A stretch of DNA of 42,581 nucleotides from Trueperaceae bacterium (GCA_035703635.1 DASSXV010000043.1:1-42581); one strand, 5' to 3'; positions 1 through 42,581 are shown, numbered from the stretch's first letter. A program made the numbers and translations. Notes: generated by a model not told the origin, from the letters alone.

Positions 1-287
1 GCATCAACGAACGCCGCCACCCCACCAGCAGCCTGCGCCTCAGCCACCACATGCAAAGCCAAAGTCGTCTTACCCCCAGACTCAGGCCCATACACCTCAA
101 CAACCCGCCCCCGCGGCAACCCACCAACCCCCAACGCCACATCAACACTCAAAGAACCAGTAGAAATAACCCCAGACCCCAACACCCCAACCGGCTCAGC
201 CCCCAACCGCATGATCGCCCCACGACCAAACTGCCGCTCAATCTGCGACAAAGCCGCATCCAAGGCCTTCTTGCGCTGGTCTTCCAT
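1..287 (-). CDS. recA: Recombinase RecA, N-terminal part, truncated by the window edge (absent from the ORF track)
   Basis: Manual translation [29 protein letters not shown]...[61 protein letters not shown] upstream of the ATG at 287; lies downstream of cinA. Confidence 0.98.
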
Positions 288-397
288 GATTCCGCCATCC
301 TCCATCCGAATAGGGGACGACCTGTGACAGGTCTACCCCGGTGGTCGCCGTGCTGCGAGCGGCATGCCCGGCATCGCTGCCGCGCCGCGAGCACTGC

Positions 398-1828
398 TTA
401 GCGCAACGCCGACCGGAGGAGGTGCAGACTGGTGAACGCGGTTCTCTCGCGTTGCCACGGCCCGCCGAGTGGCGGCAGGTCGAGGGTTCTCACTGAGGTA
501 CCAGACTCACTAGCTATAGCGATGAATACCTGTGTTCGCAGGCGCTCTTCCTCAACCGGTTTGGCGCCGACGGCGGTGGGCGCAGCCGAGCCGTGCCCCC
601 CTTGGGGAGGCAGGCTCACTGCAGCTCCGCCGTCTTCCTTGGCGCTTCGTTCGTCAAAATTCAAGTATTGCGAGGCGACCAACGCTGGGGTGCATGGCCC
701 AAAGTTGGCGATGCCAAGGTCCGCCTTGAAGAACGCCCGGACCGCGGCCGCCAATGCCACTACTACTTCGACTGCCCCGGAAGGCAGTTTCTGCAGAAGT
801 CGCATGTCAACCCCAAGCGCTCTCATGGTTTCCACGTCGCATGCTATCACGCTACCGCTTACCGCTCCGGACGGTCGTATTGGCGGTTTGGCGCTGCCGA
901 GGAGCGATTTGGGTCTCGCTAGTTGATCGACACCGTCGTCAGCTCCGACGAGGTAACCCGTGAGCACGCCGCCGGTGCTGCCCTCGAACACGGCGAGCCG
1001 CTTGCCGCGCGAGCGCAAGCCTGCGAGCACGAGGCTGGGGAGGTCGTCGCCGTTGTTGCCCCACACGGCGTCGCCCAGGAGGGCCGCCACCTGCGCGACG
1101 GTCGGCTTGGCCAGCGCCGCCGCCTGCTCGGCGTCACTGGCTTTGGCGGCGACGCGTACGTGCACGCCGTCGACCTTGGCGTAAGTCGCGACGCTCGGGT
1201 TGCCCTGGTCAGTGAGCGCCCCTAGCGTCTCAGCCACGCTTGACTCTCCAACCCCGATCGTCTTGAACGTGTGGACGAACAGCTTGCTCGTCGGTAACGG
1301 CAGGCGGGGGAGAGCCTCGTTCTGCCACATGCGATCGAGTTCCCGCGGCGGCCCAGGCAGGGTGACGATGAAGCGCTCCACGCCATCCAAACTTAGGCGC
1401 ACCAGCCACCCAGGCGCCGTACCGACCGGGTTGGGCAGCACCTCGGACGACGGGATGACGTTCGCCTGGCGCAAGTTCGACTCTGGCATGGTTCGGCCAT
1501 TGTTCGCGAAGCGTGTGCGGAGCCAGTCCTCGAGCTCAGGGTCGACGCGCTGCTCCTCGCCAAGGACTTCGGCAACGGCGTCGCGCGTGAGGTCGTCGTC
1601 CGTCGGGCCTAATCCGCCCGTAAGTACGATGAGGTCGCTCCGTTGCAGAGCTGCACGCAGCGCGTGCGTTATGCGCGCCTTGTTGTCGCCGACCCGTGAT
1701 GACCAGTAGACGTCGACACCGACGGCGGCCAGGTCCGCTGCTATGCGGGCGCTGTTCGTGTCGACGATCTCTCCTAGGAGGAGCTCGGTGCCAACGGTGA
1801 TGATCTCGGCGTTGCGGATAGCGGGCAT
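398..1828 (-). CDS. cinA: CinA family competence/damage-inducible protein (MoCF-like domain plus degenerate PncC domain)
   Basis: AEIITVGTELLLGEIVDTNS, GGLGPTDDDLTR, NPVGTAPG and LPGPPREL motifs; adjacent to recA; start placed at ATG 1828, 5 nt after TGgTAAGTT (ORF track starts at 1843). Confidence 0.93.
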   Translation of the reverse strand: MPAIRNAEIITVGTELLLGEIVDTNSARIAADLAAVGVDVYWSSRVGDNKARITHALRAALQRSDLIVLTGGLGPTDDDLTRDAVAEVLGEEQRVDPELEDWLRTRFANNGRTMPESNLRQANVIPSSEVLPNPVGTAPGWLVRLSLDGVERFIVTLPGPPRELDRMWQNEALPRLPLPTSKLFVHTFKTIGVGESSVAETLGALTDQGNPSVATYAKVDGVHVRVAAKASDAEQAAALAKPTVAQVAALLGDAVWGNNGDDLPSLVLAGLRSRGKRLAVFEGSTGGVLTGYLVGADDGVDQLARPKSLLGSAKPPIRPSGAVSGSVIACDVETMRALGVDMRLLQKLPSGAVEVVVALAAAVRAFFKADLGIANFGPCTPALVASQYLNFDERSAKEDGGAAVSLPPQGGHGSAAPTAVGAKPVEEERLRTQVFIAIASESGTSVRTLDLPPLGGPWQRERTAFTSLHLLRSALR

Positions 1829-1865
1829 GACGGAACTTACCATCGCGCTGCGCAGGCGCCGCTTG

Positions 1866-7782: not shown

Positions 7783-9657
7783 TTAGGTTCCTGGCGCCTC
7801 TGTCGGCTCGTCCGTTGCCTCAGCGAGCCAGCGCCCCAATACCCTCGTCGCCAGGGCGGCCAGTGGGGCGACGACGGCGCCGATCACGAGCCCGACGAGG
7901 AGGGCGACCCCGGTGCGTTCAAGCGAGATGAGCAGGGGCGTGTGGTAGTGGCTGAACGAGTTGAGGATGCTCGCTTGCGCCACCACGCCACCAGTGAGAA
8001 GCAGTCCACGCAGCCACGCTGGCCAGCCCGGCACTGCCAAGGCGATCAACGCGAGGGGGTGGCCGAGCAGCTCCTTGAAGCGCGGCCGAGCCACGAACTC
8101 CCCGAGCAGGGAGCGCAACGTGAGCTCGAACTGGCTGACGCCGATCACCGGGTCGTTGCCGCGCCGCAGCACGACGACTGCTACCGCCGCAAGCGCTAGC
8201 AGCCCAAGGGCAACATGCCCGAACGTTATGCGGGTGCCCAACATGCGCTTGACCCACACGGCCGGTCGATGCTGGCGCAGGAGGTAGGCGGCGAGGAAGA
8301 GGGCGGGAGGCACGACCAACGTCAGGCCGACACCCGAGAACGGCCTGATGGCGAGCAGCGTCTCGCGCTCACTGCCAACTGCGGCGAGTAGCAGCGCCCC
8401 GGCGAGGCTGACGGCCGTCGCGCCAAAGATGGCGGGCAGGCGTTCCTTGAAGGTCAGGTACCCGAGGGTGGGGAAGACGAGGGCGGCGAGCAGAGCCACC
8501 GCGTCCCACGACGGCCCCGCGAAGAAGAGCGCCGCCAACACGACGAGCGCGAGCGCAGCGGCCCCCCACGGCGCTGGGAAGCGCCTGGCGAGGAGGAGCA
8601 CGCCCGCTGCCACGCCGAGTGCAGCCAGGGCGCGTAACCACGCCTGCGTGACGTAGCTGGTGCCGAGCTCCGAGAGCGGCCCGACGACGTAGCCTTGCGC
8701 CGCCAATGAACGGGTCAAGCCAGCGACGAGCTTCTCCGTGTTCTCGATGGGGTCGCCCAACTCGACCGTCGTGTACGGCCGCAGGTAGAGCAGGCGCACG
8801 TTGCGCTCCTCCACCGCCAGCAGGTACTTGTCGATGAGGTCGGCGGGGCGTAGGCGCCTGTCGACGTAATCCTGGTTGAAACTGAGGAGCCTGACGGTCG
8901 GCACCTTGCCTGACAAGTCGGCCATGCCGTTCTGCGGCGTGCCTTCGATGACGGCCGTGTAGTAGCCAGCCGACGCTTCTTCGACGTCATCCAACCCGAA
9001 CGGCCAGCCAGCGACCTGGGTGCCTGCGTGAACGAGGTAAGTCGCCTCGTCCGGGAAGTCGCTGCCAGCGCCGACCAGTGAGTATGGCGCGTTGCGCGGG
9101 CGGTACGCGATGTCGAAGCCGGCGTTCTTCCAGAGCCGCAGTTGCGCCGTGTCCGGGCCGGCGGGCATTACCGTCTTGACGTCGCCTGGCCACAAGTACC
9201 AGGTGCGACCGTCGAGCTCGAACGAGCGCGCCTGAGGGACGTTCTTCGCGATGAGGTCGTCGAGCGCTCCTGGGAGGAGCGCAGTTACCAGCGTGGCGTT
9301 CGAAGGTATCGGCGGGGCGGGCTCGCCGCTAGCGAGGAGTTGCGCCTTCAGCTCGGAACCGAGCAGCGTGGCGGCGTAACCCTTCGCGGCCAGGGTCTCG
9401 ATGGTGTCCTCGTACAGCGCTACGCCCGTGAGGCCGCTCGCCTTGTAACGCAGCCCCAGCTCGAGGCTGGTTAGCCCAACGAGATCGCCTTGGGTCCCGA
9501 GCGCTTGCTCGTCCATGACGATGGCGACTTGCTCCTTGCTGCTCTCGGCCGCGACGCGCCGCACGGCGAGGACCGCGGCGGGCACGAGCGCCAACACGAC
9601 GACCAGCCACAAGATGCGGTCGATACGCGCGGTCTTGGCTGCGCCGCGGTAACTCAC
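7783..9657 (-). CDS. DUF5693 family membrane protein
   Basis: N-terminal TM, large soluble domain with ERNVRLLYLRP, C-terminal multi-TM region with RPRFKELLGHP and NSFSHYHTP; next to csaB. Confidence 0.85.
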   Translation of the reverse strand: MSYRGAAKTARIDRILWLVVVLALVPAAVLAVRRVAAESSKEQVAIVMDEQALGTQGDLVGLTSLELGLRYKASGLTGVALYEDTIETLAAKGYAATLLGSELKAQLLASGEPAPPIPSNATLVTALLPGALDDLIAKNVPQARSFELDGRTWYLWPGDVKTVMPAGPDTAQLRLWKNAGFDIAYRPRNAPYSLVGAGSDFPDEATYLVHAGTQVAGWPFGLDDVEEASAGYYTAVIEGTPQNGMADLSGKVPTVRLLSFNQDYVDRRLRPADLIDKYLLAVEERNVRLLYLRPYTTVELGDPIENTEKLVAGLTRSLAAQGYVVGPLSELGTSYVTQAWLRALAALGVAAGVLLLARRFPAPWGAAALALVVLAALFFAGPSWDAVALLAALVFPTLGYLTFKERLPAIFGATAVSLAGALLLAAVGSERETLLAIRPFSGVGLTLVVPPALFLAAYLLRQHRPAVWVKRMLGTRITFGHVALGLLALAAVAVVVLRRGNDPVIGVSQFELTLRSLLGEFVARPRFKELLGHPLALIALAVPGWPAWLRGLLLTGGVVAQASILNSFSHYHTPLLISLERTGVALLVGLVIGAVVAPLAALATRVLGRWLAEATDEPTEAPGT

Positions 9658-10295
9658 GCCCTGCCCCTGCCGCTACGCCGCAAGTACGCGTCTACGTGGT
9701 CGACGAGGACTTCAAGGGCTACGCGGTTCTTGCCGCCCTCAGGCAGCACTAGGTCCGCATACTGCTTGGTCGGCTCGATGAAGAGGTCGTGCATCGGCTT
9801 GACCGTCCTGCGGTACTGCGCGATCACGGCCTGGGCGCTGCGGCCACGCTCCTCGACGTCACGCTCGAGGCGCCTGATGAAGCGCTCGTCAGGCGGCGCG
9901 TCGACGAAGACCTTGAGTTGCATGCGCTCGCGCAAGTGCTGATCGTGCAGTACGAGGATGCCTTCCACGATGATCACCGGCTTCGGTTCGAGGTACAGGG
10001 TGTTCGGGGAGCGGTCGTGAACGGTGAAGTCGTAGACGGGCCGCTCGACGGACTCCCCGCTAACGAGCCTGTCGACGTGGTCGACGAGTAACTCGGAGTC
10101 GAAGGCGCTCGGCTCGTCGTAGTTCGTTAGCACGCGCGCCTCGAAGGGCAAGTCACCCTGCGCGCGGTAGTAGGCGTCTTGCGGCAGCAGGAGCGCGTTC
10201 TCACTACCCGCCTCGGCCAATAGCGCCTTGGCGACGGTCGTCTTGCCCGAACCGGTGCCGCCAGCCAGACCGATGACGAGCGAACGTTCGCTCAC
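9654..10295 (-). CDS. udk: Uridine kinase
   Basis: IGLAGGTGSGKTT, QDAYY, NYDEPSAFD, IIVEGIL, RRLERDVEERGR, FIEPTKQYAD. Confidence 0.96.
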   Translation of the reverse strand: MSERSLVIGLAGGTGSGKTTVAKALLAEAGSENALLLPQDAYYRAQGDLPFEARVLTNYDEPSAFDSELLVDHVDRLVSGESVERPVYDFTVHDRSPNTLYLEPKPVIIVEGILVLHDQHLRERMQLKVFVDAPPDERFIRRLERDVEERGRSAQAVIAQYRRTVKPMHDLFIEPTKQYADLVLPEGGKNRVALEVLVDHVDAYLRRSGRGRA

Positions 10296-11962
10296 GAGGC
10301 CCGTGCGTCTGCGCTGGTTTCCGGCCGCGACCCAGACGCGCGCTGCACGGCGGCCCTGATGAAGCCCGTGAAAGGCGGGCTTGGCCTCATGAGGCGGGAC
10401 TTGAACTCGGGGTGCGACTGCAGGCCAAGGAAGAACGGGTGCCCAGGGAGCTCGACGGATTCGACCAACCCGCGACCGCGGCCAGCCATGCCCGGAGTCA
10501 CGCCGCCGATGACGAGGCCAGCGCTAACGAGGCGCTCGACGTAATCGGGGTTGACCTCGTAACGGTGCCGGTGACGCTCGTGAACGATAGGTAGCGTGGC
10601 GCCGCCCTCCGCGTACAGCTGCCCGACCAAGCTGCCGGGCGTTACTTCCATCGGCCAACTACCGAGGCGCATGGTCCCGCCCATGTCGGCCACCTCGAGC
10701 TGTTCGGGCATGAGGTCGATCACGGCGCTCGGCGTGTACTGGTCGAACTCGGTCGAGTTCGCGCCACGTAGTTCCGCGACGTGACGGGCGAACTCGATGA
10801 CTGCCACCTGCATGCCAAGGCAGATGCCGAGGTAAGGCACGCGGCCCTCGCGCGCTACCTGAGCGGCCCGCACCTTGCCTTCGATGCCGCGTACGCCGAA
10901 GCCGCCTGGCACCAGGATGCCGTCGAAGCTCGTCAAGTGCTCGACGTCCCCCTCCACCAGGTCCTCAGCGTTGACCCAGTGGATGTCCACGGCGGCGTGG
11001 TTAGCGATGCCCGCGTGCTTGAGGGCCTCCATGAGGCTGAGGTAGGCGTCCGGCATGGCGACGTACTTGCCGACCACGGCGATGTTCACGCGCTTCTGCG
11101 GTTGCCGAAGCACGCGCACGGCCTCGAGCCAAGCCCTCAGCTCGGGGGTGACGCGCTCGAGGCGCAGCATCTCTTCGACGAAACGCCCAACGCCTTGCTG
11201 CTCGAGCATGTCGGGGACGGCGTAAACGAAGTCCGCGTCGTAGGCGTTGAAAACGGCGTCGTGAGCGACGTTGGAGAAGAGCGCGATCTTGCGCCGCCCA
11301 GACTCGGGAACGGCCTGCTGCGACCTAAGCACGAGCGCGTCCGGTTGAATGCCGACGCCCCTAAGCGTGGCAACCGAGTGTTGCGTCGGCTTGGTCTTGT
11401 GTTCCTCGCTCGTGCCGAGATAGGGGACGAGAGTGACGTGGATGTACAGGGTGTTGTGCCTGCCCTGCTCGAAGCGGATCTGGCGGATGGCTTCGAGGAA
11501 CGGGAGCGACTCGATGTCGCCGACCGTACCCCCGACCTCGACGAGCACGATCTCGGCCTCCGCCGCGTCTCCGGCCTCGAAGATGCGGCGCTTGATCTCG
11601 TCGGTGACGTGCGGGATGACCTGCACGGTCTGCGACAGGTAAGCGCCCCTGCGCTCCTTCTCGATGACGCTCAAGTAGACCTGGCCGGTCGTGACGTTGT
11701 TGCCGCGCCCAAGGTCTACGTCGAGGAAGCGTTCGTACGTTCCGATATCAAGGTCGGTTTCTGCGCCGTCGTCCGTAACGAAGACCTCACCGTGCTCGTA
11801 TGGCCGCATGGTGCCTGCGTCCACGTTCACGTACGGGTCGATCTTCACTGCCGTTACGCGGTAACCGCGCGCGCGCAGGAGTGCGCCGATGCTCGAGGTC
11901 GTTATGCCTTTCCCGAGACTTGAAACCACCCCACCGGTGACGAAAATGTACTTGCGGTCCAT
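10292..11962 (-). CDS. pyrG: CTP synthase
   Basis: KYIFVTGGVVSSLGKG, HGEVFVTDDGAETDLD, GICLGMQ, ERHRHRYEVN, QSHPEF. Confidence 0.99.
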   Translation of the reverse strand: MDRKYIFVTGGVVSSLGKGITTSSIGALLRARGYRVTAVKIDPYVNVDAGTMRPYEHGEVFVTDDGAETDLDIGTYERFLDVDLGRGNNVTTGQVYLSVIEKERRGAYLSQTVQVIPHVTDEIKRRIFEAGDAAEAEIVLVEVGGTVGDIESLPFLEAIRQIRFEQGRHNTLYIHVTLVPYLGTSEEHKTKPTQHSVATLRGVGIQPDALVLRSQQAVPESGRRKIALFSNVAHDAVFNAYDADFVYAVPDMLEQQGVGRFVEEMLRLERVTPELRAWLEAVRVLRQPQKRVNIAVVGKYVAMPDAYLSLMEALKHAGIANHAAVDIHWVNAEDLVEGDVEHLTSFDGILVPGGFGVRGIEGKVRAAQVAREGRVPYLGICLGMQVAVIEFARHVAELRGANSTEFDQYTPSAVIDLMPEQLEVADMGGTMRLGSWPMEVTPGSLVGQLYAEGGATLPIVHERHRHRYEVNPDYVERLVSAGLVIGGVTPGMAGRGRGLVESVELPGHPFFLGLQSHPEFKSRLMRPSPPFTGFIRAAVQRASGSRPETSADARAS

Positions 11963-12144
11963 GGTTCACCTACCCGGGACTCAATGCTAGCACCCGCGCC
12001 ACCAACGCCAAGCGTGGGCGCTTTCTCGGCCTCTCTGGGAGCGGTAGCGCAGCGCGTGCGTGGTACAGTCACGCCCTGCCTACGACGAGAGCGTAGGGGT
12101 TGGCGCACGTGTCGGGGGCGGCGCCGAGGAGGCTGGCACTGCGA

Positions 12145-12825
12145 GTGGACCACGACACTGACGAGGCGGACGCGCTACAGCCAAGCGGGCTGGCGACCAA
12201 GCGGCGAGGGATCCTGTTCGTCATGACCGGCGCCTCCGGCGTTGGCAAGGACACCATCCGTAGCGCGGCTGCGCCGTTCCTCGCCGAGATGGTCTACTCG
12301 ATCTCCGCCACCACCCGCGGTCAGCGGCCGGGCGAGCAGCACGGCGTCCAGTACTACTTCATAGGTCGCGAGCAGTTCGAGCAGATGATCGCGGGCCAGG
12401 CGCTGCTCGAGTACGCAGACTACGTCGGCGATTACTACGGCACGCCGGTCGCGCCCGTCAAGGAAGCGTTGGCGCGTGGGCAGGACGTGCTCCTCGAGCT
12501 GGAACTAGTTGGTGCGCGCCAGGTGAAGAAGCGCATGCCGGAAGCCGTCATGCTCTTCATCGCACCCCCATCGCTCGAAGAGCTGGAGCGGCGCTTGCGC
12601 GGGCGCGGCACCGATAGCGAAGAGAAGATGCAGAAGCGCCTCGCGCGGGCTAGGGAAGAGATCCGCGCGTTGCGCGAGTTCGACTACTTGATCGTCAACG
12701 ACGAGGTCGGACGCGCCGTCACTGAACTCGAGTCGATAATCCGCGCCGAACGCGCGCGCGCCAAGCTAGTCACGGACGCACAGCTGGCCGAGTTCCTGCG
12801 CGGCGGGCACGACGGCAAGGACTGA
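12145..12825 (+). CDS. gmk: Guanylate kinase (start uncertain; GTG 12145 follows AGGAGG)
   Basis: GASGVGKDT, SISATTRGQRPGEQHGVQYYF, YYGTP, LERRLRGRGTD. Confidence 0.96.
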   Translation: MDHDTDEADALQPSGLATKRRGILFVMTGASGVGKDTIRSAAAPFLAEMVYSISATTRGQRPGEQHGVQYYFIGREQFEQMIAGQALLEYADYVGDYYGTPVAPVKEALARGQDVLLELELVGARQVKKRMPEAVMLFIAPPSLEELERRLRGRGTDSEEKMQKRLARAREEIRALREFDYLIVNDEVGRAVTELESIIRAERARAKLVTDAQLAEFLRGGHDGKD

Positions 12826-12946
12826 AACGCGTCGCCCTACTGCGCAGTTCACACGCACTTGGGGTAACATGTAAGGTCGATTGGGCGCTAGCGCCTATTT
12901 ACCTAGTTGTTGCGGGGCCACGCGCGCCCCTTTTTCGGAGGAGCAC

Positions 12947-13252
12947 ATGGCTCAAGAAGGCTACGACAAACTGATCTCACTTACTGACTCGCGTTACCGC
13001 TTGTCCATGGTGGTGGCGCTTCGCGCCGCGCAGCTCAAGATGGGTATCCCAACCGTGCTCGAGCCAGGCGTGCTGCCTAGCCTTGAGAACAGCGTTACCG
13101 TCGCCATGAAGGAGTTCGAGGCCGATGCGGGCTTGGCGTGGGGCGATGACCTCCCGACTAACGATGAACTCAAGCGCCTTGTCGAGGTGCGTAAGCCTGA
13201 ACCAGTGAACCCGTTGGTGGGCACGCCGTTCGACGAAGACGACGACGACTGA
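12947..13252 (+). CDS. rpoZ: RNA polymerase omega subunit
   Basis: MAQEGYDKLISLTDSRYRLSMVVALRAAQL; gmk-rpoZ synteny; GGAGGAG RBS before ATG 12947. Confidence 0.93.
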   Translation: MAQEGYDKLISLTDSRYRLSMVVALRAAQLKMGIPTVLEPGVLPSLENSVTVAMKEFEADAGLAWGDDLPTNDELKRLVEVRKPEPVNPLVGTPFDEDDDD

Positions 13253-13289
13253 AGCAGAAGTAGCACGACCACACGAGGTTTGTTGGCAC

Positions 13290-13323
13290 CGGGCCGTCCG
13301 CGTATGGGCGGCCCCGCTTCGTT
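13290..13323 (+). terminator. Probable terminator after rpoZ
   Basis: GGGCCGTCC/GGGCGGCCC stem followed by a weak T tract. Confidence 0.45.
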
Positions 13324-13357
13324 CTGAATAACTTCCCGGATGCTAGGCTGAATATGC

Positions 13358-13816
13358 ATGGCGAGCAAGGAACACCGTCAACGACTGATAGTCGACCTGG
13401 TGGAGAGCGAGTTCATCTCCACCCAAGCTGAGATAGCCGAGCGCTTAGCCAGCAGCGGCATCAACGTCACGCAGGCAACCATCAGCCGCGACGTTAGCGA
13501 GTTGAGGCTCGTGCGGGTGCCATCCGGCCGCGGCAGGCACCGCTACAGCGCCACCCCGATGGTCATGCAGGACGACATCGAGCGCGAGTTGCGCGACCGC
13601 TTCCGCCTCTTCGTTCGCCACCTCGATAGGGGTGAGAACATCATCGTCGTAACGACAGACGAAGGGCACGCGTCAGGGGTGGCGTTCGTGATCGACAAGC
13701 TCGAGCGCGACGAGATCGTCGGCACCCTCGCGGGCCAGAATGCCATCCTAGTCGTCACCCGAACGACGGCGGTGGCCGAGACCATCCAGGAAGAGTTCGA
13801 GCGCCTCCTAGAGTGA
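13358..13816 (+). CDS. argR: Arginine repressor
   Basis: TQAEIAERL, VTQATISRDVSEL, IVGTLAG; 152 aa. Confidence 0.95.
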   Translation: MASKEHRQRLIVDLVESEFISTQAEIAERLASSGINVTQATISRDVSELRLVRVPSGRGRHRYSATPMVMQDDIERELRDRFRLFVRHLDRGENIIVVTTDEGHASGVAFVIDKLERDEIVGTLAGQNAILVVTRTTAVAETIQEEFERLLE

Positions 13817-13871
13817 AAGTGCATGGAGCGGCTCATAAACCCGTGCTAGCCTGAACCACTCTGGAGGAAAC

Positions 13872-16223
13872 ATGCACCGTCCAGCTCGACGTTTCTTGCT
13901 ATTGATCCTAGCCGCCTTCACGGCAATTATCGCGCCGGTCGGCGTGGTCAGCGCGGCCTCGCTGGCCGTCCACCCGTTCGCAAGTGATGACCCGCTACTC
14001 GGTATGGCCGTCGCGGATGAACTCGCCGCGTCGTTCGAGGGCGTTGACGTGCTCCTCGGACCAGACGTGACGGCAGGAGCCATCCCGCCGCTCATGGTGC
14101 CGGGCGGCTTCATCGGCATCACCCGTGTGGTGGGCGAGGATCCGATGCACGGTCCAGCTGGCGCGCAACTCTTACGGGGCGCGCTCGGCGTCGACGTGGC
14201 TGCCACCGGCAGCGTGCTCGTGTTGGACGCGAGCTACCGCCTCGACCTGGTAGTAGCTGGCCCAGAAGGCGTCGTCAGCGCCTCACTGCAGGCGCCGCAT
14301 GGGCGGCGCGACCAGCTCGTCGCGCAAGCCGCGCGCGTCGTTGCGCGCGCGCTGAACGGCCCGACACCGGCGCCGCCGTCAGCACCGGCTCTAGACGGGG
14401 CGTACGCCAACTACGTGACCGCCCTCGTCTATGCGGGCGACGGCTTCGTCTCGGACGCCGCTTCGTTGCTTGCCAGCGTCGCCGCCACTGAGTTGCCCGT
14501 ACGCGCCCACAGCCTGCTCGAGGACCTCGACGCGGCCATAGCCCCCGCCTCCGCTGCCCCGGTCGCCTCCGCCTCGCGCCAGTTGCGCCGCGCACTACTC
14601 GGGCTGGGGGTCGAGTCGTTCGACGAGGACACCGGCTTCGCGGCGTTCCAAGCGGTTACAGCCGGCGCGCAACTCCCGCTCGCGGGCGCATGGGCCGCCG
14701 TATTAGCCGCCAGCGTCGGCGACTACGCTGCCGCAACGGCGAGCCTGGAGGCCGCCAACGCTAGCGGCAGCTACCCATACGGAGAGGCCCTCGCCGCCGC
14801 ACTAGCTTGGGCGCAGGGAGACGAGGCGGCGGCGGTCGCCGCCATCGACGACGTGATCGCCAGTCCGGCCAGTGGCAGGGCGGCCGCGCTCCTAGGCGCG
14901 TCGATCGTCGCCCAGATCAGAGCCGACCCACAACGCGAAACGGCGGCGCTCAACGCCCTCAGCCGCGTCGCTCCTCACCTCGTCTACTCCTTCGAGCGGC
15001 TCTCTTACTTGGCCTTCGACCGCGACGACCCCCTAGCTGCAGCCGAGGCGCTCATCCCGGCCGTCCAGTTGGAACCGGAGTCGGACCTCTACTGGACGAA
15101 CCTCGGGTGGTCTTACTACCTGCTCGGTTTCCTCGACAAGAGCGAAGAAGCCTCGCAGCGCGCAGTCGAACTCGATGGCAACCAGTACATCGCCCTCTAC
15201 AACCTCGGCCTCGTCGGCAGTGTACAGGGGCGCCTGGCGGACGCCGTTAAGGCGTACGACCGCGCGATCAAACTCGACCCCGCGGTTGACGACGAGGCTA
15301 TCGCTGACCTCGAGTCCGCGCTTGAGCTCTATCCGTCCGCCGTTGGGGTCAATTACTCCCTCGCGTACCTTTATGACGCCGAAGGTAGGCGCGACGATGC
15401 GCGGGCACGCTACAGGCGCTTCGTCAGGCTCGCCACCGCGGCGGGTGAGTACCCTGAGTTCGTCGCCTTGGCGGCCGACCGCTTGGTGGTCCTCGACGCG
15501 CCACCGCCACCCCTAGAACTCAGCGGGGGCGTGACGCCCAAGCTTGGCGTTCGGGGCCCTGACGCCTCACCGTTCCACCCGGGCGACCGCGTCTTCCCGG
15601 CTTTCGAAGTCAGCACCCCAGGCGACCAATTGCCTGCGCGGCTCAACGTGACCATCACCATCACTGGCGCCAGCGAGGAGAGCGTAGCTACCGGCGGAGG
15701 AGAAGTGGTCGTGCCGACGGGCGCGGTTGGCTTCGTGGTCGATACTTTGGCCCTCGACCTGCCGCTTGACCTCGCGGCTGGCGCATACGACCTCAACGTC
15801 GAGGTCAGCGCGCTGGATGGCAGCCGCACGGCTGGCAGCGCCACCTTGGAGGTCGACGGCGCCCCTGAAGTGCTCCGCCAGCTATTCAGCCGCGGCGTCG
15901 TGATGACGGCGCTCGAGTCGGGCGCGCCACTCTACGGCGCTAAGGACCTAGCTGATCCGCAGGCCTTCGTAGCCGCACTTGTCGACGAACTGCGCTCCGG
16001 GGCCGCGGCGGCGGACCAGGCGTTGCCAACGGTTGATTCTGGCCGCTTCGCTGGGCAGACGGGGCGAGAACTCTTCGAGTCAAGCACCGATGCCGACGTT
16101 ATCGACTACCTGGCTTACGTCATCGCGGGCGGCGTTAGCGACTTCCGCTTCGTCTTCGTCGACGGCTACGCCTCCTGGGCGCTTGACGGCGCACCAACGG
16201 CACCAGAAGGAGCGGCCGAATGA
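13872..16223 (+). CDS. Large exported TPR-containing protein
   Basis: Signal peptide; TPRs (YWTNLGWSYYLLG, ALYNLGLVGSVQG); beta-rich C-terminal region; GGAGG RBS. Confidence 0.8.
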   Translation: MHRPARRFLLLILAAFTAIIAPVGVVSAASLAVHPFASDDPLLGMAVADELAASFEGVDVLLGPDVTAGAIPPLMVPGGFIGITRVVGEDPMHGPAGAQLLRGALGVDVAATGSVLVLDASYRLDLVVAGPEGVVSASLQAPHGRRDQLVAQAARVVARALNGPTPAPPSAPALDGAYANYVTALVYAGDGFVSDAASLLASVAATELPVRAHSLLEDLDAAIAPASAAPVASASRQLRRALLGLGVESFDEDTGFAAFQAVTAGAQLPLAGAWAAVLAASVGDYAAATASLEAANASGSYPYGEALAAALAWAQGDEAAAVAAIDDVIASPASGRAAALLGASIVAQIRADPQRETAALNALSRVAPHLVYSFERLSYLAFDRDDPLAAAEALIPAVQLEPESDLYWTNLGWSYYLLGFLDKSEEASQRAVELDGNQYIALYNLGLVGSVQGRLADAVKAYDRAIKLDPAVDDEAIADLESALELYPSAVGVNYSLAYLYDAEGRRDDARARYRRFVRLATAAGEYPEFVALAADRLVVLDAPPPPLELSGGVTPKLGVRGPDASPFHPGDRVFPAFEVSTPGDQLPARLNVTITITGASEESVATGGGEVVVPTGAVGFVVDTLALDLPLDLAAGAYDLNVEVSALDGSRTAGSATLEVDGAPEVLRQLFSRGVVMTALESGAPLYGAKDLADPQAFVAALVDELRSGAAAADQALPTVDSGRFAGQTGRELFESSTDADVIDYLAYVIAGGVSDFRFVFVDGYASWALDGAPTAPEGAAE

Positions 16224-41793: not shown

Positions 41794-41869
<76 letters not shown>

Positions 41870-41917
41870 GTCACGAGAGGAGCAAGTCACTGCCGGTGGA
41901 GTAACGATGCGAGGCGC

Positions 41918-42002
41918 GGGTAGGTGCCCGAGTGGTTAAAGGGGACGGACTGTAAATCCGTTGGCTTAGCCTACGCTGGTTCAAATCCAGCCCTGCCCAC
42001 CA
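41918..42002 (+). tRNA. tRNA-Tyr(GTA)
   Basis: Anticodon loop CTGTAAA, long variable arm, encoded CCA. Confidence 0.97.
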
Positions 42003-42102
42003 GCCGCATCGATCGCGAGAGCGATCACCGGTAGTCTGCCGCGGAGCGCGAGCTCCTAGGCAAAGCACTGGCGAACCGGTTCCCGTGATCGGTTCCCGGT
42101 AC

Positions 42103-42178
<76 letters not shown>

Positions 42179-42246
42179 GAGCAGTCGGTGCGCCTAGCGG
42201 CGCCGCGGCTGTTGCCGAAGCAAGTGCAGTGTTTAGGCTGCGGTCG

Positions 42247-42321
<75 letters not shown>

Positions 42322-42441: not shown

Positions 42442-42581
<140 letters not shown>

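Follow-up and report, generated by a model that had tools for sequence, protein, structure and literature searches.

The closest described systems are GRINS, defined by Nivina et al. (2021) as duplicated regions that exceed 500 bp in length, 80% in identity and 0.15 in both mean absolute GC skew and mean absolute TA skew. As described there, the two skews are correlated and strongest at third codon positions, glycine and valine are enriched, and the elements are associated with gene conversion. GRINS have been reported in many phyla, many of them in genes for 'replication, recombination and repair' (Nivina et al. 2021). Their mechanism is unknown, and the authors propose that skew promotes conversion (Nivina et al. 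2021). The second system is the concerted evolution of duplicated tuf genes. In Deinococcus-Thermus such duplicates are listed as concertedly evolving (PMC6053082), and in a model of Salmonella tufA/tufB conversion initiates anywhere and is bounded by the gene (Paulsson et al. 2017, PMC5485169).

We analysed a stretch of 42,581 nt (the window), which is the whole of contig C36 of the Trueperaceae assembly G000. The features of the window are collected in Table 1. An earlier note on this DNA, based on reading by eye, had described recA as written almost completely in G/T-ending codons, with every Leu as TTG, an ordinary start, intact RecA motifs and C-rich neighbouring genes. A script count bears this description out. 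The third base of recA codons 9 to 95 is G in 50, T in 35, C in two (ATC25 and TTC93) and A in none, which gives 85 of 87 codons ending in G or T, and Leu is TTG in 9 of 9 cases. Codons 2-8 are the ordinary GAA GAC CAG CGC AAG AAG GCC. The Walker A motif GPESGGKTT is present, and the Pfam RecA match is given in Table 1. All 32 crude genes within the window are C-rich (third base G 0.28-0.42, T 0.05-0.15, C 0.40-0.54), and the frame enclosing cinA (401-1990) has third bases of G 0.33, T 0.10, C 0.42 and A 0.15. The note named neither the published term GRINS nor the skew of tuf at the other end of the window, where we found that 45 of 45 codons end in G or T.

Table 1. Features of the window (positions counted from its first base).
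Feature	Position	Strand	Basis
recA, truncated by contig start	ATG at 287, running off base 1	-	open-frame reading
recA codons 9-95, skewed tract, G/T-ending	1..263	-	third-base count; Pfam RecA E = 2.8e-35
Stretch common to both recA copies (C36, C56)	1..269	-	alignment, 268/269 identical
recA codons 1-8, ordinary codon usage	264..287	-	codon reading; copy-specific from 270 upwards
cinA-like gene, directly upstream of recA, unskewed	398..1843	-	Pfam MoCF_biosynth, CinA_KH, CinA
tRNA-Thr, Tyr, Gly, Thr genes, upstream of tuf, unskewed leader	41794..42321	+	ARAGORN
tuf (EF-Tu) start, truncated by contig end, second skewed repeat tract	42445..42581	+	Pfam GTP_EFTU

A per-gene count of third-position G+T, which had been suggested as a check, places recA far outside the rest of the genome. 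Among 2065 crude genes of G000 the mean was 0.427 (sd 0.048, maximum 0.60), in a gene set that required GC3 > 0.72 and thus excluded skewed genes by design. Windows of 87 codons sampled from the same genes (n=67,245) held on average 36.5 G/T-ending codons (sd 6.1) and at most 64. Chance is excluded as the source of 85 G/T-ending codons in 87. Back-translation with fixed codons was also considered as an artefact and ruled out, since Gly, Ala, Val and others use two codons each. An unfiltered six-frame scan of G000 for stretches with at least 90% G/T-ending codons returned 32 merged hits. The real proteins among these were two recA and three tuf fragments, the former both N-terminal, the latter coding for the EF-Tu C-terminus in two cases and for its N-terminus in one; the other 27 were, by eye, off-frame translations rich in Arg, Pro and Ala. 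The 12 most A+C-rich of the 115,337 150-nt windows in G000 all lie in C36:1-276 or in C56:1-276, the end of a second contig.

The window edge is a contig end, as had been suspected, and the break at recA is caused by a repeat: C36 and C56 end in an identical 141-mer and agree over the stretch given in Table 1. The 5' end of C56 carries the same 269 nt as C36, followed by its own N-terminus and its own upstream gene. The window recA begins MEDQRK and the C56 recA begins MDKERV, and both types are found again in the related genome G003. The gene upstream is cinA for the window recA and a transketolase-fold 2-oxoacid dehydrogenase E1-beta gene for the C56 recA. Many further contig pairs share terminal 141-mers in the same way, and we read these as probable branch ends of a k=141 assembly graph. 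The remainder of recA is not in the G000 bin. Two other contigs, C29 (1-129) and C86 (1-129), start with one identical 141-mer that codes for the EF-Tu C-terminus in G/T-ending codons. In these fragments C-ending codons return from 12 codons before the stop, and rpsJ, directly downstream of tuf on C29, also has C-ending codons. At each end of the window lies a collapsed repeat, recA at one and tuf at the other, and both are skewed. The Thr-Tyr-Gly-Thr tRNA cluster upstream of the window tuf is a tufB-like arrangement; in E. coli the tufB operon likewise has a tRNA cluster before tuf.

Two further features of these contigs were observed. The sole mismatch between the visible recA copies, at position 142 (codon 49), is GAT (Asp, also in G003) versus GTT (Val), a non-synonymous A-to-T difference on the coding strand in the same direction as the skew. 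G000 has 4 sites of a palindrome, CCTTA-N5-TAAGG, most of them in the longer form TACCTTA-N5-TAAGGTA, versus ~0.8 expected from base frequencies (C56 351-365, locus L002; C2:35102; C11:15535; C44:8204). The C56 site, which precedes the second recA copy by ~65 nt, is kept in G003, and the palindrome may be the operator of a damage or stress regulon.

Contigs from public sequencing runs were compared with window 1-1500. The runs were X13 and X14 (2016-17, probably one data set filed twice), X9, and X15, which is an RNA library. In X13/X14 contigs match window 1-239 without any differing letter and the junction region is also covered, while in X9 one contig bridges window 176-1291. X15 gave one contig up to the junction of the window copy and another whose loose end reads C56-type sequence; these RNA-library contigs at both paralog junctions are no proof of transcription. 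The earlier note had proposed read depth as a check for extra copies, and this came out divided. We found a doubling in X13/X14, where the contig on 1-239 stands at 192.6 and the contig on 241-1389 at 99.4, and no doubling in X9, where the shared contig stands at 10.1 and the unique flank at 8.8. Since these are contig depths and not read depths, the X13/X14 ratio is only suggestive of two recA copies.

The proposed duplication of recA is established by the related genomes. G003 is a single-contig genome of the same genus, of which the scan covered 2,519,400 of 2,919,400 bases (86%), namely those up to 2.4 Mb and from 2.8 Mb on. It has two full recA genes and two tuf genes. The recA copies (589,578-590,559 and 836,406-835,425) are inverted, lie 245 kb apart and are 100% identical over 982 bp; the tuf copies (877,756-878,976 and 1,074,714-1,075,934) are 99.9% identical over 1221 bp. 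G031, a Trueperaceae MAG outside the sampled genus whose RecA is 80% identical, carries recA twice, at 99% identity along 984 bp, and extra contig-end fragments of recA occur in G013, G015, G008 and G001. Self-comparison of the scanned 86% of G003 returned, besides recA and tuf, three IS-like families and some diverged pairs, and no long stretch of real protein in the same 86% other than recA and tuf reached 90% G/T-ending codons. The distance from the minus-strand recA to the plus-strand tuf in G003 is 42 kb, in agreement with the window. Both recA contexts of G000 are found again in G003, with the cinA context beside the minus-strand recA.

Gene conversion between the copies, which had also been suggested, is likewise confirmed. 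The G003 recA paralogs are 100% identical, whereas orthologues between species of the genus are 83-93% identical, and the paralogs therefore evolve in concert. The tuf pairs consist of two copies in differing contexts with identity confined to the gene, as in concerted paralogs of the tufA/tufB type. These repeats have an effect on assemblies, which short-read data break exactly at recA and tuf. Among 18 genomes of the genus (G000-G017), 6 have a full or nearly full recA, 4 have N-terminal contig-end stubs only, and 8, genomes with completeness ratings of 97% and 100% among them, gave no RecA-family match above the cut-off. Since the recA repeat drops out of short-read MAGs, the apparent absence of recA is an assembly effect and not biology.

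We then set these repeats against the definition of GRINS. Skew was measured in 150-nt windows at 30-nt steps, and paralogs were compared genome-wide, as opposed to within one PKS cluster in the GRINS definition. The recA and tuf repeats of G003 and the recA repeat of G031 all exceed the limits of length and identity; in the window's own assembly just 269 nt of repeat (268 identical) are visible and the remainder is unassembled. Mean absolute GC/TA skews are 0.51/0.25 for recA and 0.49/0.32 for tuf in G003 and 0.57/0.58 for window 1-269, and the background 1-kb tracts of G003 have median absolute skews of 0.079/0.128. Both thresholds are passed by 69 of 4798 G003 tracts, of which the top four are the tuf and recA copies. 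GC and TA skew are correlated, with r = 0.48 in recA and 0.30 in tuf. The recA and tuf tracts belong to GRINS, a known but unexplained class, and it is notable that recA itself, together with tuf, is affected.

Milder or opposite skews were seen elsewhere. In G003 an IS21-like transposase frame (C1:2,398,564-2,400,000, in L180) has third bases of G 0.56, T 0.13 and C 0.27 and adjoins a 686-bp repeat of 93.6% identity, a mild skew in a mobile element. Skewed transposases are also reported in the GRINS paper. Single-copy stretches of opposite sign occur in G003 at C1:1-6000 and ~421,000-428,000 (L061, L082) and in G000 at C40 ~9,000-14,000. They hold long minus-strand genes (1127 and 871 aa, nuclease/helicase-like by eye) with third-position C of 0.65-0.69 and a mean GC skew of 0.3-0.4 on the plus strand; in the skew scan they ranked directly behind recA and tuf, and none of them is a repeat.

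The limits of the skew follow those of the homology between paralogs. Skew sets in 2-3 codons after the start of paralog identity and ends before identity does, by 8 codons in G000 tuf and by 23 codons in G003 recA. The gene ends are unskewed (recA codons 1-8, the last 23-45 codons of recA and the last 12 of tuf), the 3' limit in recA varies between species, and the flanks within the same transcription units (cinA, the tRNA genes and leader, rpsJ) are unskewed as well. In the Salmonella tuf model conversion starts anywhere within the gene, and therefore most events would fall in its centre, which matches a skew nested inside the identity tract. Block profiles show the tract to be saturated without a gradient. 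It had been asked whether the skew flips to C/A in the 3' half of the gene. We found no flip: the coding strand is G/T-rich along ~300 codons of recA, after which ordinary C-rich usage returns, and along ~390 codons of tuf, with a single polarity in each element.

The coding strand is G/T-rich in 4 of 4 gene copies, whatever the direction of replication. In G003 dnaA lies at 2.79 Mb and the cumulative GC skew has its maximum near 1.3 Mb, and therefore a single replichore holds all four loci, and its leading strand is the plus strand. Replication meets the minus-strand recA head-on, and yet this gene is G/T-rich on its coding strand, which rules out a replication-strand skew. Homology sets the extent of the skew and the coding strand sets its sign. 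Transcription alone and replication alone are both excluded as its cause.

Conversion has no need of skew, because 23 codons of G003 recA and the tuf pairs of genera g3 and g4 are identical yet unskewed. This suggests that conversion most likely came first and that skew accumulated later. Conversion is also insufficient, because the tuf copies of G020 (g4) and G027 (g3) are 100% identical yet C-rich; in g7 the copies are 100% identical and partly skewed. A lineage-specific factor is needed besides conversion. In G006, of the same genus as the window, the two tuf 5' ends differ at 38 of 397 nt and are C-rich, as are the 126 nt common to both copies, and the recA fragment is only weakly skewed. 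G006 points to a lineage-level factor behind the skew. Duplication as such was rejected as a cause, with three IS-like families (98-100% identity) and diverged paralog pairs free of G+T skew. None of these families and pairs passed both GRINS thresholds with correlated positive skews, several passed one, and skew is absent from recently transposed identical IS copies.

Comparison with orthologues, another suggested check, showed the skew in 7 of 7 recA sequences (third bases G/T/C/A, for example, 228/104/17/2 of 351), which came from 6 genomes of the genus in which recA is duplicated. It was found in 0 of 13 single-copy recA genes from seven other genera, whose third bases are ordinary (for example 141/11/168/22). 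The association of duplication with skew in recA rests on one, or at most few, evolutionary events. For tuf the corresponding counts in three species of this genus are 232/163/10/0, 242/158/5/0 and 214/177/12/2 of 405. By genus, tuf skew is strong in g1, partial in g7 (261/57/84/3) and g5 (260/75/64/7), and none in g3, g4, g6 and g8, where third bases are ordinary. The relatives can be ordered by degree, with no skew at one extreme, saturated G/T skew at the other and G-only skew between them. Within the tract of G031, 5 of 5 synonymous differences between the recA copies oppose C to T or G.

The earlier note had attributed the skew to C-to-T and A-to-G changes. This description is too narrow, for C at four-fold sites is replaced mostly by G, a transversion. 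At four-fold sites of tuf the G:C ratio is 93:304 in ordinary genes, 324:22 in partly skewed ones and 394:2 in this genus. The T:C ratio at NNY and Ile codons moves from 1:188 through 74:106 to 245:14, and the G:A ratio at Lys, Glu and Gln from 97:32 through 127:2 to 153:0. In the partly skewed lineages C remains at 22 of 405 four-fold sites versus 106 of 183 NNY and Ile codons. In pooled codon tables Leu has shifted from CTG/CTC to TTG in 76 of 80 cases, and the choice between G and T inside four-fold families follows the usual preferences, with GGT and CGT favoured. The pattern is a loss of C relative to G and T and of A relative to G. Deamination at equilibrium, biased heteroduplex repair or selection could each give such equilibrium ratios. 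Overall, the earlier interpretation is borne out for duplication and gene conversion but not for its specific mutational mechanism.

The shift extends beyond third positions. At position 1 of recA codons G is 0.50 versus 0.39-0.46, T 0.14-0.18 versus 0.07-0.13 and C 0.14-0.16 versus 0.15-0.27. Positions 1 and 2 have both moved towards G and T, with changes such as Ile to Val and Lys to Arg, and in the examples compared variable loops have turned Gly/Val-rich. Runs of GGG are enriched 2-2.5 times. A load of G-quadruplexes is not supported, as the recA tract (913 nt) has a single canonical motif and the tuf tract (1185 nt) has none; in the background, 177 of ~2400 1-kb windows hold at least one such motif.

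We favour, with a probability of roughly 70%, the reading that a GRINS-type repeat is present, of which the tract is the visible 5' end and in which two recA genes have their central ~1 kb held identical by ectopic RecA-type conversion and skewed in recombination intermediates. The two tuf genes would be kept identical by the same ectopic conversion. Each time two copies form recombination intermediates a strand-asymmetric bias would act and replace amino bases (C, A) of the coding strand by keto bases (G, T), and most non-synonymous outcomes would be removed by purifying selection on the protein. Because variants are either erased or copied to the partner, a small bias per event would act like strong directional selection and override codon preference. 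The build-up would be slow, with conversion first and skew later. The bias may come from deamination, in D-loops or resected tails, of C and A on whichever strand is exposed as single-stranded DNA. It may also come from unequal recognition of heteroduplex mismatches, in which G-T, G-G and T-T are seen and A-C, C-C and A-A are not. We consider these two sources about equally likely. The polarity on the coding strand probably reflects a filter, in that highly expressed or essential genes would tolerate NNG and NNT but not NNA codons.

Among the rival explanations, an artefact of assembly, consensus or binning, or a recent import from a donor with G/T-ending codon usage genome-wide, is hardly credible. 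The tract does lie at a contig end of a metagenome-type assembly and the remainder of recA is absent from the bin. However, independent runs (X13/X14, X9, X15) read the same letters and the junction at 269 is bridged, and the same skew occurs in a single-contig genome and 5 further genomes of the genus, with species-level divergence. As for import, the nearest RecA outside the genus is from another Trueperaceae (80% identity) with two copies and intermediate skew, and outside Trueperaceae no recA exceeds 0.63 G/T (62 of 80 kept loci scorable by the motif filter). Recoding by a DGR-like or retro-element is unlikely on the sequences compared, because both copies are identical and the changes mostly synonymous. 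Transcription-associated mutation alone, with the non-transcribed strand deaminated or left unrepaired and the duplication incidental, would place the skew on the non-template strand, where it is. C-to-T with A-to-G is moreover the classical signature of single-strand deamination, known from the vertebrate mitochondrial heavy strand and, for transcription-associated C-to-T, from E. coli. Against this explanation, co-transcribed flanks (cinA, the tRNA genes, the 5' and 3' gene ends) are unskewed and rpsJ directly after tuf has C-ending codons. No single-copy gene reaches the threshold in two genomes (G000 and 86% of G003), and the boundaries match paralog homology within 2-24 codons. We regard it as very unlikely.

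Selection on the G/T-rich coding strand itself, with gene conversion merely spreading favoured variants, is an unlikely alternative. Possible benefits are an A/C template strand that, in a lineage exposed to radiation or desiccation, suffers fewer lesions able to block transcription (oxidised G, T-containing photoproducts), an mRNA poor in C that escapes ribonuclease or folds usefully, or a GC skew that favours regulatory R-loops or G-quadruplexes. Consistent with selection, polarity is on the coding strand in all four copies, both genes are needed under stress or at high expression, the preference for GGT and CGT shows selection inside the restricted alphabet, and GGG runs are enriched. Yet the skew stops within the transcription unit and the coding sequence, where one lesion or cleavage site would defeat the benefit, and its 3' boundary varies between species. 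The C-rich single-copy recA of sister families, the unskewed tuf pairs of three genera and the ribosomal protein genes beside tuf also argue against it, as does the near absence of canonical G-quadruplex motifs from the two tracts.

Returning to a bias that acts in recombination intermediates, one specific form of it is tentative and rather improbable. GRINS, including the recA and tuf tracts, may be the footprint of biased conversion that arises from a blind spot in mismatch surveillance, a 'keto drive'. Keto mismatches would be processed or rejected, notably by NucS/EndoMS and less sharply by MutS, and amino-base mismatches would go unseen. Given a preferred sense of the strand that enters the heteroduplex, G/T alleles would then beat C/A alleles in every exchange. 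This would yield correlated GC and TA skews, C-to-G besides C-to-T, confinement to converted tracts and slow build-up, and, if true, recA would be rewritten by the activity of its own product. NucS/EndoMS is described as preferring G-T, G-G and T-T, hardly touching A-C and restraining homeologous recombination (PMC8228993). NucS is present in G000 and 14 of 17 other genomes of the same genus. By genus, strong hits were found in 14/17 genomes of g1, 1/1 of g7, 3/3 of g3 and 1/3 of g6; g5 gave weak partial hits alone (2/2), and there were no hits in g4 (0/2), g8 (0/1) and g2 (0/1). Across these 8 genera the presence of NucS does not track skew, as g3 has NucS and is unskewed and g5 is partly skewed with weak hits. 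A link between GRINS and NucS was not found among the literature matches listed.

The locus places constraints on any mechanism: bounds set by homology, polarity set by the coding strand, conversion before skew, and conversion alone being insufficient. Here GRINS affect two pairs of essential housekeeping genes that are unlinked and belong to a small genome, which makes for a cleaner natural system than the giant genes of polyketide synthases. Thermus-like relatives have intermediate tuf skew, and the bias could be measured directly in a harmless and genetically tractable organism. A strong preference for G in the tuf gene of Thermus thermophilus was reportedly noted in the 1980s.

Several known systems share parts of this pattern. 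In the vertebrate mitochondrial heavy strand and in resection-linked mutation clusters T and G increase on one strand at the expense of C and A. Gradients of single-strand exposure depend on replication or on a break site, and no sequence within their reach is spared, whereas the recA and tuf tracts are bounded by paralog homology and saturated without a gradient. The concerted evolution of tufA and tufB likewise involves two dispersed copies of an essential gene that are near-identical in the coding region with differing flanks. However, in the passages of those papers considered here it is described without nucleotide skew (the word 'skew' occurs 0 times in PMC6053082) and recA is not named. 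Skewed recA or tuf is not described among the literature matches listed, and recA, tuf and Deinococcus-Thermus each occur 0 times in the main text of the GRINS paper, whose supplements may list such genes. Already in print, as far as these sources go, are GRINS as a class and the concerted evolution of tuf in Deinococcus-Thermus, the latter with no mention of skew. What appears to be new here, on the sequences compared, is the evidence that conversion preceded skew, the single polarity, and the location in dispersed essential genes.

The differences from GRINS as described by Nivina et al. (2021) are of four kinds. GRINS were described in modular polyketide synthase genes and elsewhere mainly in transposases, whereas here recA and tuf are affected. 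Polyketide synthase GRINS have G+T-rich and C+A-rich segments on one strand, whereas here both gene families have one and the same polarity over the whole tract in each of the species examined. The copies in GRINS are neighbouring modules, whereas the recA copies are dispersed (245 kb apart and inverted in G003). Finally, the authors propose that skew promotes conversion, whereas here conversion occurs without skew. In what is reported of them, GRINS and the recA and tuf tracts are nonetheless alike: both are long repeats (over 500 bp) kept similar by conversion, with intense and positively correlated skews that peak at third codon positions and an amino-acid usage moved towards Gly and Val, and both encode functional proteins.
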